DNA from: Chiloscyllium plagiosum
Lineage: Eukaryota
Direction of reading: 5' to 3'
Assembly (NCBI RefSeq): GCF_004010195.1
Contig: NC_057756.1
Coordinates: 3,814,785-3,878,784 of the forward strand
Length of the DNA stretch: 64,000 nt
Shown: positions 242 to 62,779 of the stretch, one piece after another
Position numbering within the stretch: position 1 is the first letter of the stretch
How the letters are laid out: each line of letters opens with the position of its first letter
Made by a program: the position numbers and the translations under genes
Notes under the pieces: model-generated
What the model saw: the letters and a program-made list of their open reading frames with translations, nothing else
Database searches by the model: none
Told to the model about the DNA's origin: nothing

Positions 242-1639
242 AAGAAAAAAATGTAATTCCACTATCTGTTGATTTTACACAGCATTCTTACCAACATTCT
301 CTCATTTCTTGTTATTTGTGAAATTTCTGCTTTTTATGTTACAGGAAGTGAAATTTCCCAGCATTACTCTTCTGCAAAATATGTTTGTATTTTATCTTCC
401 ATCTTCCAAATTTCTTTTTTTAAAATTAATGCGATACACATCTGTGATTCTGTGTGAGTCCCTAATTCAAGTATGAATTATTTATGTCCACAGCACACTT
501 ATACAGCATGAGAAAGAGGCGACTTCTGAAATATGCAACAATTCTCATTCATTCAATACCTGAAAAGTTTCCATAAGCGCTTTCCGTTCTTCAGGCATAA
601 GAAAACATTTTAGATCTGATCTGCTCTTGAAAAGAAAGTCAGAATGAGGCAGCTGAAAACGGTTGGACAATGGACAAGAAACATACAAAGAGGATCTCCT
701 ACATAAATGAGAACCATCTTCATTTTCATCAAGCATACTTTCAACCAACGGGCACATTTCTCGTCTTGCACATTTGATATGGTTTTCCCAAAAATTCAAA
801 TTTTTCCCATCAGACAAACTTAGCCTTGATATTAAAATCAAATTATGTCATCTCAGCTCTGTAACTTAACATGTATTCTTCATCCTGAAATCAAGGCTAC
901 TAAAAGATGAGCACAGTGGTACCAGCGTAACTCATTTGCTGCATCAGTGATTGGATTATTGCTAAACTTGTCATACATGACATCACTGTTGATGAAGACT
1001 TCAGTAACTTCGAAGATGGTTGCCAATAACCTGATCATGGCCACATGCTTAGTTTGTATTCAGGGTGACTTTTCTACATAAAACTCTCCCATAAAGATTT
1101 CAGTGCTTCTGTTGGTTTCCTATGTCATAACTGTAGTGGAGCAATTGGGTCGAGGCAAAAACAACGTCTAAAATCCACATCTTGTGTAAGATTGCTAAAA
1201 TATTTTCATGTCTATTCATTTTCTTGTGCTCATCGCAATGCACATTTTCTTAACAAGTTTTCGAAAAACGTTTGAGAAATGTTCTGTCACATAGTGATAA
1301 GAAATTTTAAGTCGTCACGCAGGGTCAAGCAGATTTTGTATTGAACTGAATTTTGCATTAAATATCTTTATTTCTTGTTACTGTTACTCGATTGCAGAAG
1401 TACAGGAACATCGTGAACATTATTTTAATAATCGCTGCCTGTAAATGGTGCCATGTTAGGTACTAGTACCTACGTGCAGATACTACAGAGTAAAAAAAGC
1501 AGTTATACCAGAGAAAATAACAGTATCAATTGCAATGTCCAAGAATGAGTTAAGAATGAAGTACTTAACATCGCAAAAAAATGATTACATTACTCTCCAG
1601 TGAAGAATTCCAAACTGCAGCAACTAAACATATGGCGCA

Positions 1640-2110
1640 AGGCCCAAGTCTGACATATGTCCCGCAGTTCTCCAGACTCCAGACCAATCCGCAATGACAC
1701 TTAACAGCAAAAAGATGACTGACGTTGTACCGGGATTCGCTTCACCTCAAGTCACTCCAAAACCCTGGGGTTCCCCTAGTGCAAAACGGAAATATATCAT
1801 TCTGCTGTCATTCGGAACTCAGCCTGGCAGACATTCTACTGCTACCATCGCTCCGGGATTTACTCCATGAGTCAGTCTGAATTTGCTGTGCTGCCCCTGT
1901 GTGACATGGCCCACGTGATCAGCTCTAGACCAATCTCTGATCGTAACTCATGTCCTTTGAAACCTTTCTTCAGGTGGAGTGATTGAAAGTATGGGAGAGG
2001 GATTAAGTAATACATGCTGCAAAGAATAGAAAGTAAAGGAATAAAAAGAAAACAGAACTGGCCAGCAAGGAAGCTCTGACAGGAGTATCCTACTCGGCTG
2101 CCTTCTTATT
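1640..2110 (-). mobile_element. Probable decayed L1-like 5' region
   Basis: The minus strand begins AAGAAGGCAGCCGAGTAGGATACTCCTGTCAGAGCTTCC, followed by a T-rich tract and a relatively GC-rich body. It resembles fish/shark L1 5' ends; recognised from memory only. Confidence 0.35.
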
Positions 2111-2614
2111 GAAATTCGAATTTCAGAAGGCTTAATTGTACAATGTAATTGGAGTATGTTTGTACTTCTTTGGACTGATGTACGCCCAAAATTAAATGCA
2201 TTATATGAGCATTACGAGAACAACAACCAAAACTGTCTTTGAAACATAATATTGTTATTTACAATATTCACATTAGCAATTACTGCACTGAGTGATTGTG
2301 GAGCAGGATGGACTGAGTGTGTGATGAGGAAATAGAGAGGAGAAGGACGAGAAGGAAGGAGTGAGTGAGGGTGGGGTGGAGGGAAGGGAGGAGAGAGTGA
2401 CAGGGGAGATCAGAGTGGAAAGAATGAAGGGGAGCATGGTAGCTCAGTGGTGATACCAATTTGATTCCAAACTTAGGGGAATACCTGTGTGGAGTGTGCA
2501 CAATCTCCCCGTGTGCGAATGTTTTTCTGTCAGATGCCCCAGTTCCGTCCCATCATCCAATGCTGTGCAAGTTAAATGGTTCGGCCATGTTAAACTATTG
2601 TCTGGGAATGTAAA

Positions 2615-3672
2615 GAATGTAGGACCATTCAGCGCAGCCATTTTGGCACGAGCAATTTAACGCAGCCTGTTTGGCGCAGCCTATTTTGCCGCAGACCCAT
2701 TTAGGCGCAGAACTATTTTGCCACATATATACGGTTGTCATCAATGAAAATCAACATAATAGTTGAATTATTAAATGAGTAGTGTCCAGCAGTTTGTAGT
2801 TATTATTAAAATAACTGGTCATCAAATAAAAAACAACTGTAGAGGGAATTTTACAAGTGATTAATGGGTAGCTAGAAAATTTGTCAGAAGCTTGCAAAGG
2901 AAAGATGCCTTACAACAGAGCGCTGAAGAAAATGGTTCGTAAGACAAGGAAAGAAATTGCTGCTTGCCCAGTAAATCCAAGAAATTTAGAAGAACTGGAA
3001 ATTTCAGATAGCTTTAAAACGTCTTCTGTCAATGAATATAATGTAGAACATTTTTTACTAGCCGACAGCGGTAGCACCACCTGCAGAATTATTATATTTG
3101 GAAGAAAAACGAATGCCAAGTTTCTGAAACAATCAAAAAAGTTTTATGTTGATGGAATATTCAAAATTTCACCACCTATACTTTCACACAGTTTATATTA
3201 TTTCAGGGAAAATACATAAGGGTGTGTTCCCAAAGTTGTATGCTATACTCCCAAATAATTTACGGACGACATATGATAACTTATTTGAAATGGTTCTGGA
3301 AATACAGAATGAATGCCGCCCTGACATTATCAACTGTGACTTTGAACTTGTACATCTCGTAGCAGGGCACGATATTTCATTAAATTTAAAGAAATTAAGG
3401 GAATTCGATGGTTTTTTAATATTTTTTGAGAAATTTTGAGGAACCATTAGGAGTGGACTAATCATAGACTAAATGCAGTTGATACACAAATAACTACAAA
3501 CTACTGGAAACTACCCATTATTCTATTATTAAGTTGTTTTTCTTTGCATGACTACCGTATATCTGTGCCAAAATAGTTCTGTGCCTAAATGGGTCTGTGG
3601 CAAAATAGGCTTCGCCAAACAGAGCAAGCCAAATCGCTTGCACCAAAATGGCTGCGGTGAATGGTCCCACTC
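2615..3672 (+). mobile_element. Internally deleted MULE/Mutator DNA transposon with ~200-bp TIRs
   Basis: GGACCATTCAGCGCAGCCATTTTGG...AGACCCATTTAGGCGCAGAACTATTTTG from 2622 is mirrored at ~3470-3668. Internal ORFs 2881-3219 and 3146-3439 give FLLADSG..IIIFG..FYVDGIFKISP and VFPKLYAILPN..TY..LF..INCDFE, which are MULE transposase motifs. Confidence 0.9.
2881..3360 (+). pseudogene. Frameshifted MULE transposase fragment
   Basis: DG(T/I)FK and CDFE motifs lie in two overlapping frames, and the fragment is truncated after CDFE. Confidence 0.85.
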
Positions 3673-60801: not shown

Positions 60802-61698
60802 GACGGCATCGACACAGTAGGAATATATCCATTTGTAATGTGCACAGATTTTATGGTTAAAAAGAAGTTTAGAGTCATTTTGTAAAACTGCTAATCGTGA
60901 TAAATTCCGGCGACTCAGAGGTTGTCATTTTTCTGCATCTCATTCAATCAACGTGTTATGGATTCGGGACCTTTGCGATTCCTTCCAGGAAGATGGATGA
61001 AAGCTGGCAACTAGAATTTGAGTGAATTTCATTGTTGATGTTTAAATGCATGTTGTTCCAATAAATAACTTTTCTGAGGTAGTCTATTTTGCTTGAGTTG
61101 TAGCATGTAAAAGCTGATGAAATTTGAGAAATTTAAAGATATAAACAATTTTTGAACAGACCGTGTGTAACACTGTAAACGGGAAGAGTGATTTCAATGT
61201 TGTGGTCGTCTCTACCGGACAAAACGTTTTAGATTAACAATGTTTAAAAATCAGACATTACAATAGATTGCAACTCACTGCCGCAGTCGGTCGTGGAATA
61301 TCAGTGATTTACTGTTTGATGACAGAGAAATGTTACTTTTTTACACAAACCATCCATGTTACCGGATTGATAAATGGGATTATGGTATGTTATGAACAAG
61401 AAGAATAGCCATGACCTGAATGAATGATGAGGCAGACTTAACAGGCTAAATGTTTACATCTGCTATTAATCCCCTTGACTGCAGGTTCGTTATGCCAATC
61501 CAAAATGCAACAAATATGGGCTGCACGTATTTTTCTCCCTTTAGTGCACAGTGAATGTTGTCAAAATACTATGTAGAAGAACTTGTGGGAATTCACGATG
61601 AGAACCTTTTAACATGAAAATGAACACTGGCAATGTAGGACAGGAAGAAACATGTTGAACATTAATTCCGTTAATTCCTTTGTTTCCATTACTTGTAG

Positions 61699-61734
61699 AG
61701 CTCAGTCAGGCAGAAGATAGAATGAAGATATTAG
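61699..61734 (+). other. Candidate 36-nt phase-1 micro-exon (ELSQAEDRMKIL)
   Basis: ttcctttgtttccattacttgtag|AGCTCAGTCAGGCAGAAGATAGAATGAAGATATTAG|gtgagt. Confidence 0.6.
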
Positions 61735-62779
61735 GTGAGTCTTCATTAAATTTACACAGACTTGGACAATATCATTTGGAATGCAGACTACTGACTGCCT
61801 TAGAAGTACTGATGTCCTGATATTCAATACACCACATAACGGCTGAGACAAAGACAGCGGCTGCAATACCTCTAGATAATAACCGATGGCTCTCGTTGTA
61901 ATTCGAAATTTGATAATTTCTGCACATTTTGCAACACTATTCGTGCTTTCACATACGTCTGCTGATATTTTGCACTTATGCAATAAATGGTGGAAGTTGA
62001 AGGGGCAGGCGACATTGAACTGATTGTGGTATTCGAATCAGTATCAAATAAACCTAATGATGATATAAAGCAACCAGATTACCCCATGTTCGACGAGTCC
62101 AAAAGTAACAAGGTCGTCCAAAATACGTGAATAACATTTTTTCTCTGAATGATGTCTGACAAATCAGCTCCCTTGTGCTAGAATCGTTCATTTGTGAAAT
62201 CTATGACAAGTACAGGCCAAGAAACTATAAATTCAGCAAAGCTCTTTTCGAGAGGATATAAGCAGATGTTGAAGCGATTGACACATAGAAAACTTTTCTT
62301 TTCAGCCCAATATTCATTGTGTTTCAAATCGCAGGAAAGAACAGAATATAATTTTATCGACCTGTCCTGTGCTGTATGAAATGCATGATCATCAAGTACT
62401 AAAAGATTTTAAATCATAATGAATGTCATTTGTGTTTGTAAAATCTTGGTGACCGTCCTCTCCCAGATATGCTGCCTACATTAAGTAAACTACTGATGTT
62501 TGAGTTGCTGTAAGGTTCTTGTTTGTATGATGGAAAGCCATACCACGCCGGTTGGCTGTTATATCATTCTTAAAAGCTATGCATACTGCTACAACTCTGT
62601 AAATCAATTGAAAGAAGGAACTCCATTCATTTCTTGATACGTTTGTTAGCTGTTAGTTTGTTATTTCAATGAATTAAATGACCGTACTAACTAAGAACAA
62701 CTCAGTATTTTTGCATTATTCACTCTCAAATATCCATGCCAGGACATGCAAAAAGGTTTTTAGTCGCGCCTCAAAACTT

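Follow-up and report, generated by a model that had tools for sequence, protein, structure and literature searches.

A region of the Chiloscyllium plagiosum genome is probably the interior of a very large micro-exon gene encoding a coiled-coil rod and a B30.2 domain

We describe a stretch of 64,000 nucleotides (nt) from the shark Chiloscyllium plagiosum (positions 3814785-3878784 of contig NC_057756.1, here C47), referred to as the window, whose plus strand carries an array of very small exons. These micro-exons are symmetric, share phase 1, follow one another in an ordered sequence of lengths and place hydrophobic residues in a coiled-coil heptad register, and they continue on both sides of the window. 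The window is probably the middle of one gene of about 870 kilobases (kb) or more that is composed of some 120-180 such exons and a terminal B30.2 (PRY-SPRY) exon. A sequence-only reading of the same DNA had picked 19 candidate exons by eye and had proposed that the window lies inside a large cartilaginous-fish gene of symmetric phase-1 micro-exons, many with helical or coiled-coil-like peptides; exons from the window, from its flanks and from samples taken farther downstream support this proposal.

Results

Micro-exons of the window

All 19 proposed segments are preceded by AG and followed by GT, have lengths divisible by three (3n) and an open phase-1 frame, and match the translations given for them. 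The caution attached to them, that selection by eye is biased, was well placed: pairs loose enough to be picked in this way number 53 on the plus strand and 36 on the minus strand, and a crude scan of AG..GT pairs of 9-60 nt with repeats unmasked revealed neither a 3n bias nor a strand bias. In an improved scan, repeats within 264 kb were masked and a single pair was kept per site. At a splice score of at least 8 and a length of at most 45 nt, 3n pairs with phase 1 open accounted for 6 of the 9 plus-strand pairs of the window and for none of the 2 minus-strand pairs; the same test on 40 shuffles gave a mean of 0.68 and a maximum of 4. The masked pairs therefore display the plus-strand bias that the proposal predicted, above both the minus strand and shuffled DNA. 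In the 100-kb flanks, at a score of at least 7, such pairs made up 25/27 on the plus strand versus 12/26 on the minus strand (Fisher p 0.0002), and peaks of length at 21, 27, 30 and 36 nt appeared on the plus strand only.

An exon model combining splice score, residue use and length was trained on 27 flank exons alone; flank counts obtained with it are partly circular and were not used as a test. When the model was applied to the window, totals of at least 5, 8, 10 and 12 were reached by 11, 9, 8 and 5 exons on the plus strand versus 1, 1, 0 and 0 on the minus strand, with maxima of 7, 3, 3 and 2 in 60 window shuffles (mean 0.52 at a total of at least 8). Ten of the 11 plus-strand model exons coincide with earlier picks. 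Nine of these are strong (starting at 8767, 15563, 18077, 20491, 21716, 34123, 35609, 36090 and 61699) and one is moderate (17733). The other nine (1398, 8200, 20655, 21378, 35304, 58358, 58468, 58685 and 62467) score no better than chance, with totals of -3.8 to 4.4, and are indistinguishable from the 36 loose minus-strand pairs. In blind tests the plus-strand array is thus real, although no more than 10 of the 19 picks rise above chance; about half of the proposed tiny exons look genuine. The features, in window coordinates, are as follows.

8767..8796, plus strand: 30-nt phase-1 micro-exon with a [DE]LxxC motif; total 10.3, versus 6.9 for a 15-nt form
15563..15592, plus strand: 30-nt phase-1 micro-exon; top splice score of the window, 12.3; total 10.3/10.9; another acceptor at 15569 would give 24 nt
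17733..17759, plus strand: 27-nt micro-exon with moderate support; total 5.6/6.3; another donor at 17753
18077..18103, plus strand: 27-nt phase-1 micro-exon; splice score 8.2, total 12.7
20491..20526, plus strand: 36-nt phase-1 micro-exon, at which a regular 36/27 alternation begins; splice score 12.0, total 14.3; phase 1 alone open
21716..21742, plus strand: 27-nt phase-1 micro-exon; total 9.5
31884..31904, plus strand: doubtful 21-nt candidate, absent from the earlier picks; splice score 7.5, total 6.5; holds a proline and interrupts the 36/27 alternation
34123..34158, plus strand: 36-nt phase-1 micro-exon; splice score 9.0, total 16.5; phase 1 alone open
35609..35644, plus strand: 36-nt phase-1 micro-exon with a [DE]LxxC motif; total 11.2, splice score weak at 2.1; positions 2, 5 and 9 hydrophobic
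36090..36116, plus strand: 27-nt phase-1 micro-exon; splice score 10.8, total 14.3
36117..61698, plus strand: putative repeat-rich intron of 25.6 kb, the gap between supported exons; the unsupported picks at 58358, 58468 and 58685 fall inside it
61699..61734, plus strand: 36-nt phase-1 micro-exon; splice score 10.4, total 16.5; phase 1 alone open
1..64000, plus strand: probable gene interior (the whole window, C47:3814785-3878784), with exons on both sides

Two picks need correction in detail. A strong exon candidate does lie at 8767-8781 as proposed, but the 15-nt version ends at an inner donor at 8781 and the 30-nt form scores better; and the peptide of 21716-21742 begins with K rather than E when that exon is joined to 20491-20526, because of the junction codon.

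Exon length and coiled-coil register

Pooling the window with its 100-kb flanks gave 44 exons with a total of at least 8, of which 35 come from the flanks and 9 from the window; 28 of the 44 are 27 or 36 nt long, and no junction among them creates a stop. All seven 21-nt exons of this set lie upstream of the window, and three more are found at 3.705-3.709 megabases (Mb). They are followed by a transition of 33/30/30/27/27 nt, consisting of a 33-nt exon upstream of the window and exons of 30, 30, 27 and 27 nt at 8767-18103. Starting with 18077, the exons of 27 or 36 nt number 26, and 19 of the 25 steps between them alternate (permutation p 0.007, other lengths excluded).

A pair of 36 and 27 nt encodes 12 + 9 = 21 residues, or three heptads, and a 21-nt exon encodes one. 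In the 36-nt exons, positions 2, 5 and 9 are frequently hydrophobic (0.67, 0.75 and 0.83) and positions 3, 4, 7 and 10 never are; in the 27-nt exons position 4 is hydrophobic (0.75), and in the 21-nt exons positions 2 (1.0) and 5 (0.71). This pattern is that of heptad a/d positions over a 21-residue module with its core at 2, 5, 9 and 16. It emerged although the model score is blind to residue position. When window exons were chosen by splice score alone, 16 of 31 core positions were hydrophobic versus 9.1 expected (p 0.002), compared with 2 of 10 on the minus strand; the six strongest window exons gave 8 of 13 versus 3.5 expected (p 0.003). The helical or coiled-coil look ascribed to the peptides by eye is thus borne out in window and flank exons alike. 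Cysteines of the 44 exons occupy exon position 5, a core position, in 8 of 13 cases.

The 44 exon islands share no DNA similarity beyond overlaps and two matches of 17-19 nt. Recent tandem duplication of exon-intron units is thereby rejected, and the units are old. A genome-wide search with the 36-nt exon pattern placed none of the first 100 of its 184 matches on C47. The motif UGC is a feature upstream of neural SRRM4-type micro-exons; it is not enriched upstream of the shark exons (5/44, versus 95/440 controls). Branch-point-like YTRAY occurs at 17/44 exons versus 67/264 controls.

The order of the exons bears on how they might be used. Exons of nine and of 12 residues both miss a multiple of seven by two, and 21 residues are three heptads, so that skipping a single exon would break the register and skipping a pair would keep it. 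Ordered 36/27 alternation and register would therefore argue against free combinatorial skipping of the kind seen in schistosomes, and this part of the sequence-only reading has so far found no support, as the loss of one exon would shift the heptad by two residues.

Extent of the gene and its B30.2 exon

The first micro-exon that we see lies at C47:3705081, 110 kb upstream of the window, and 47 strong exons are present in the 274 kb read without gaps. A SPRY match at C47:4577660, on the same strand as the window exons, belongs to an intact 173-codon B30.2 exon with a phase-1 acceptor at C47:4577499-4578019, 700 kb downstream, that is presumably terminal. The B30.2 exon that the sequence-only reading expected downstream therefore exists, in the strand and phase of the micro-exons. 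The same exon types recur on the plus strand in 10-kb samples taken at 4.25, 4.40 and 4.562 Mb and in the 5.5 kb that precede the B30.2 exon, and all downstream samples together (47 kb) yielded 8 plus-strand versus 2 minus-strand exons with a total of at least 8. Small exons thus directly precede the B30.2 exon, and the same order would hold for those of the window. These observations suggest, as the simplest reading, a single gene of at least 873 kb, with the window exons presumably continuous with the B30.2 exon. From exon density we extrapolate to about 150 exons, or 120-180 once false and missed calls are taken into account, and to a rod of about 1,400-1,600 residues.

An AlphaFold model of the B30.2 exon is mediocre (predicted local distance difference test, pLDDT, 64) and confirms the fold only; the nearest solved structures are the B30.2 domains of TRIM58 and TRIM21, slightly ahead of BTN3A1. 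Four more exons of the same divergent B30.2 branch, 33-59% identical, are found at C47:994521 (plus), C47:1296638 (minus), C37:22229878 (minus) and C37:20720070 (minus); three have a clear phase-1 acceptor, which is less clear at C37:22229878. Contig C37, which bears two of them, also carries most of the TRIM and butyrophilin matches.

Relatives and a separate B30.2 branch

When the B30.2 exon served as query in a full HMMER search, relatives, all of them computed gene models, were identified in Callorhinchus, Leucoraja, Scyliorhinus, Narcine and Cetorhinus. Their RefSeq names ('TRIM69-like' in Leucoraja, 'TRIM39-like' and 'A33-like' in Scyliorhinus, 'A33-like' in Narcine and Cetorhinus) do not fit them, and Callorhinchus milii XP_042192744.1 (1,697 amino acids, aa), which together with the older model XP_007898089.1 (1,722 aa) represents one gene, is called 'nuclear-pore anchor-like'. 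Pfam scans of the relatives returned only SPRY, or SPRY with a weak PRY, above background, and no RING, B-box or Ig domain in those scanned, among which several are possibly incomplete at the 5' end. In an unrooted tree of 45 B30.2 rows (midpoint-rooted for drawing only), the relatives and five exons of the Chiloscyllium genome, 13 rows in all, form their own branch with support of 100/100, outside of which 17 TRIM and 9 butyrophilin rows are intermixed; a 945-aa Scyliorhinus model was left outside the tree and placed on the branch by eye. By this phylogeny, the B30.2 domain appears to belong to a cartilaginous-fish branch apart from those of TRIMs and butyrophilins.

The rods of the relatives are long and K/E/L-rich, with 12 + 9 modules and [DE][LI]xxC motifs. 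Tiling them with the shark 12- and 9-residue profiles gave z scores of 8.7 and 3.0 for the Callorhinchus rod, 6.3 for Scyliorhinus and 3.1 for the skate, and 0.8-3.8 for four TRIM coil controls. The 1,697-aa Callorhinchus model comprises a hydrophobic segment at residues 3-17, basic residues, a rod and a B30.2 domain, and a 295-aa skate model likewise opens with a hydrophobic segment; the relatives have no more than such an N-terminal hydrophobic segment. In the Chiloscyllium genome, the best match of the Callorhinchus model is the B30.2 exon at C47:4577499-4578019. Its rod is also matched by the upstream 21-nt exons (z 5.6), and the extrapolated rod length agrees with its 1,697-1,722 aa. The Callorhinchus protein thus appears to be a relative of this locus and a candidate ortholog, with which the window exons show no one-to-one alignment. 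Half of its cysteines (12/24) lie in [DE][LI]xxC, and it has 3 N-glycosylation sequons versus about 10 expected from composition.

Comparison of the two Callorhinchus models shows 12 differing blocks, 8 of which have a length of 9 or 12 residues, and in 4 of 6 pairs of RefSeq isoforms the relatives differ by a single block of 6 or 9 residues. These single-block differences between predicted isoforms suggest that some exon skipping may occur.

Word-based protein searches returned no full-length shark model of the gene, which is weak evidence of absence in such TRIM-crowded results, and no paper on this protein family was found in the literature searched, whose scope did not extend to most subscription journals and supplements. 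An Atlas search with the Callorhinchus model (P0054) returned three clusters of long chordate coil-plus-SPRY proteins of 1,579, 1,277 and 1,802 aa (137, 55 and 79 members; scores 0.92, 0.90 and 0.79), one of which is named 'isoform X51' and hints at many splice models. The predicted protein Amia calva MBN3300211.1 combines tandem coiled-coil repeats with a membrane segment and, at its C-terminus, a TRIM-type B30.2 domain; it represents either a similar build on a different B30.2 branch or a fused model.

Search for the 5' end

The sequence-only reading had looked to IgV and transmembrane exons upstream; neither an Ig-size open exon nor a transmembrane exon was found in the 130 kb upstream of the window. 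None of 65 matches to the butyrophilin Ig-C domain (PF22705; 96/96 candidates scored) lies on C47, the top ones being on C37, and a V-set search in which 150 of 1,319 candidates were scored gave one C47 match, 6 Mb away. A leader-like ATG exon at C47:3689859 (58 nt, 19 hydrophobic residues, phase-1 donor) was rejected because it is inside an old dispersed repeat; a loose leader rule applied over 294 kb matched 6 times on the plus strand and once on the minus strand. A 357-codon open frame at C47:3694913 (plus) looks by eye like a hAT-type transposase remnant.

Discussion

Comparison with known systems

Chicken BG genes encode one IgV domain, a membrane segment and a tail of 13-36 exons in phase 1, each 21 or 24 nt long, whose heptad core residues are at codons 4 and 7 (PMC4046983, PMC5938342). 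The shark locus resembles BG in its long coiled coil, encoded by consecutive phase-1 micro-exons, in its 21-nt heptad exons and in a tail cysteine. Unlike BG as described there, most of its exons are 27 or 36 nt long (although at least 10 strong 21-nt exons lie upstream), its 21-nt core falls at codons 2 and 5, and its roughly 150 exons are followed by a B30.2 exon, which BG is described without. The relatives, too, join rod and B30.2, as the window would through its presumed continuity with the downstream exon. Human BTN3A3 has four small exons before its B30.2 exon (PMC5829056, PMC4046983); on this description, butyrophilins resemble the shark gene in having small exons and then a single terminal B30.2 exon, and differ from it in number, four versus about 150. 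They differ further in their B30.2 branch and in the IgV, IgC and transmembrane exons that the upstream 130 kb did not yield. The likeness to a BG or butyrophilin tail that was proposed earlier thus extends to small exons and then B30.2, but membership has so far found no support, as the B30.2 branch is separate and the heptad register different. By analogy, the locus appears to work like an enlarged butyrophilin/BG tail, and the comparisons of membership that could be run speak against its belonging to either family.

Schistosoma micro-exon genes have been described as 10-20 short exons with a signal peptide that encode small, secreted, variable proteins (PMC10526429). To that extent they share with the shark locus a coding sequence of mostly very short exons. 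The shark locus, with 47 strong exons in 274 kb and no credible leader exon, differs from them in that its exons are arranged by a structural register and lead up to a folded domain, and homology is not expected. Class IV TRIMs (TRIM21, TRIM58, TRIM39) have a coiled coil and then B30.2; they differ in their RING and B-box, of which the relatives scanned show none, and in a rod about 10 times shorter that is not split into micro-exons. Two further leads are likened by architecture only: enterophilin-1, as enterophilin joins a long leucine zipper to B30.2 and is not known to carry a RING or Ig domain, and TSBP1/C6orf10, a membrane protein encoded by many small exons and not known to carry an Ig domain.

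Alternative explanations

Several points weigh against a single gene of this kind. The splice-site weights were not trained on shark genes, and the core register was derived from the pooled 44 exons, including the 9 of the window. The peptides of the 9 window exons, compared without gaps with the Callorhinchus rod, give a combined z of only 0.34. Reading 130 kb upstream did not reveal the 5' end, and the leader-like exon, which precedes the first micro-exon by 15 kb, belongs to a repeat with 39 of 40 scored matches elsewhere, at 70-75% identity. An N-terminal hydrophobic segment is missing from 5 of the 7 relatives scanned, which are possibly truncated or soluble, and since two of the seven rows are Callorhinchus models the evidence for a leader comes from two genes. 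About 320 of the 873 kb were read (37%), leaving 63% of the span unread; the 4.10-Mb sample is almost empty, with a single weak match; and no RNA run is among the matches listed in a search of sequencing runs with the B30.2 exon.

The unread span and the sparse 4.10-Mb sample, together with the presence of several genes of this type on C47, would fit tandem genes between 3.70 and 4.58 Mb, the window being a separate upstream rod gene without this B30.2 exon. We consider this rather unlikely: among the candidates scored (150/258), none between 3.70 and 4.577 Mb is a second B30.2 of the branch, the middle samples show no fresh 21-nt zone, and the extrapolated length fits the Callorhinchus models. 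A receptor of the butyrophilin/BG type, with IgV and transmembrane exons farther upstream and the rod as its cytoplasmic tail, would account for the leading 21-nt phase-1 exons, which recall BG, and for the order of small phase-1 exons and then B30.2 reported for butyrophilins (PMC5829056), and the V-set search covered a fraction of its candidates. It is nevertheless improbable in view of the separate B30.2 branch, the Ig-C matches centred on C37, the 130 kb of upstream sequence in which no Ig-size open exon was found and the lack of an Ig domain in any relative scanned. Decay into a pseudogene, or loss of splicing in this species, would agree with the RNA result, with large introns filled with repeats and with weak splice sites in some supported exons (35609, 21716), but seems very improbable when 25/27 strong flank pairs keep phase 1 open, the B30.2 exon is intact and the exon units are old and would, without selection, have gathered stops. 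That the segments are chance AG..GT pairs chosen by eye does hold for about 9 of the 19, as the loose minus-strand pairs and the blank crude scan illustrate; for the ten supported exons it is largely refuted by the trained model (9 plus versus 1 minus, shuffle maximum 3), the heptad register, the 36/27 alternation and the flank signal, and is hardly tenable as a general account. We thus favor the single gene ending in B30.2.

A model for the protein

In such a gene, each upstream 21-nt exon would give one heptad and, past the 33/30/30/27/27 transition, pairs of 36- and 27-nt exons would give three-heptad modules of 21 residues. Spliced together, the exons would encode some 1,400-1,600 residues of parallel coiled coil, a rod that would measure about 200-240 nm at the usual rise of 0.148 nm per residue. 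The rod may oligomerise and keep the B30.2 heads about 200 nm from an N-terminus that, by analogy with two relatives, could be a short hydrophobic leader or anchor without Ig or RING. The build would be that of a butyrophilin/BG cytoplasmic tail enlarged about 40-fold. Exon number would set rod length; loss of a 36 + 27 pair would alter length cleanly, and loss of one exon would introduce a register break, or hinge. TRIMs, pyrin and butyrophilins use B30.2 domains to bind their targets, and the most likely role of the protein would accordingly be that of a long spacer, tether or sensor that presents a target-binding head at long reach.

For topology, we tentatively place a membrane-anchored protein with a cytosolic rod ahead, at somewhat below an even chance, because basic residues follow the hydrophobic segment and B30.2 domains are usually cytosolic. 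A secreted protein seems unlikely, a soluble cytosolic one equally so, and an Ig-bearing receptor improbable. A bolder idea, to which we likewise give a low probability, is that chimaeras, sharks and rays possess a third, Ig-less and RING-less B30.2 branch whose members combine a short leader with a cysteine-studded rod of about 200 nm; these would be secreted or surface multivalent recognition molecules, collectin-like in build with B30.2 heads, their reach tuned by micro-exon pairs gained, lost or skipped in near-megabase genes.

Near-megabase genes made almost only of 21-36-nt exons appear to have been missed or mislabelled in shark annotation. In the oldest jawed vertebrates to have adaptive immunity, the family would constitute a B30.2 lineage of its own next to those of TRIMs and butyrophilins, and it would bear on the origin of the heptad-exon tail of butyrophilins and BG. 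It would also be well suited to studies of how at least 100 micro-exons are included in order by the spliceosome, and of the tying of exon length to coiled-coil register (36 + 27 nt = three heptads).

Other sequence features of the window

An AAG triplet repeat of about 32 copies is located at window positions 16848-16941 and is intronic. Within the 25.6-kb intron, a broken stretch resembling a long-terminal-repeat retroelement or endogenous retrovirus occupies 47379-55031 on the minus strand, with Pfam matches to reverse transcriptase (50742-51065) and RNase H (49581-50009); open-reading-frame pieces beside it are gag-like by eye only. Adjoining this retroelement is a head-to-tail duplication of about 316 base pairs, with 96% identity, at 46749-47378.

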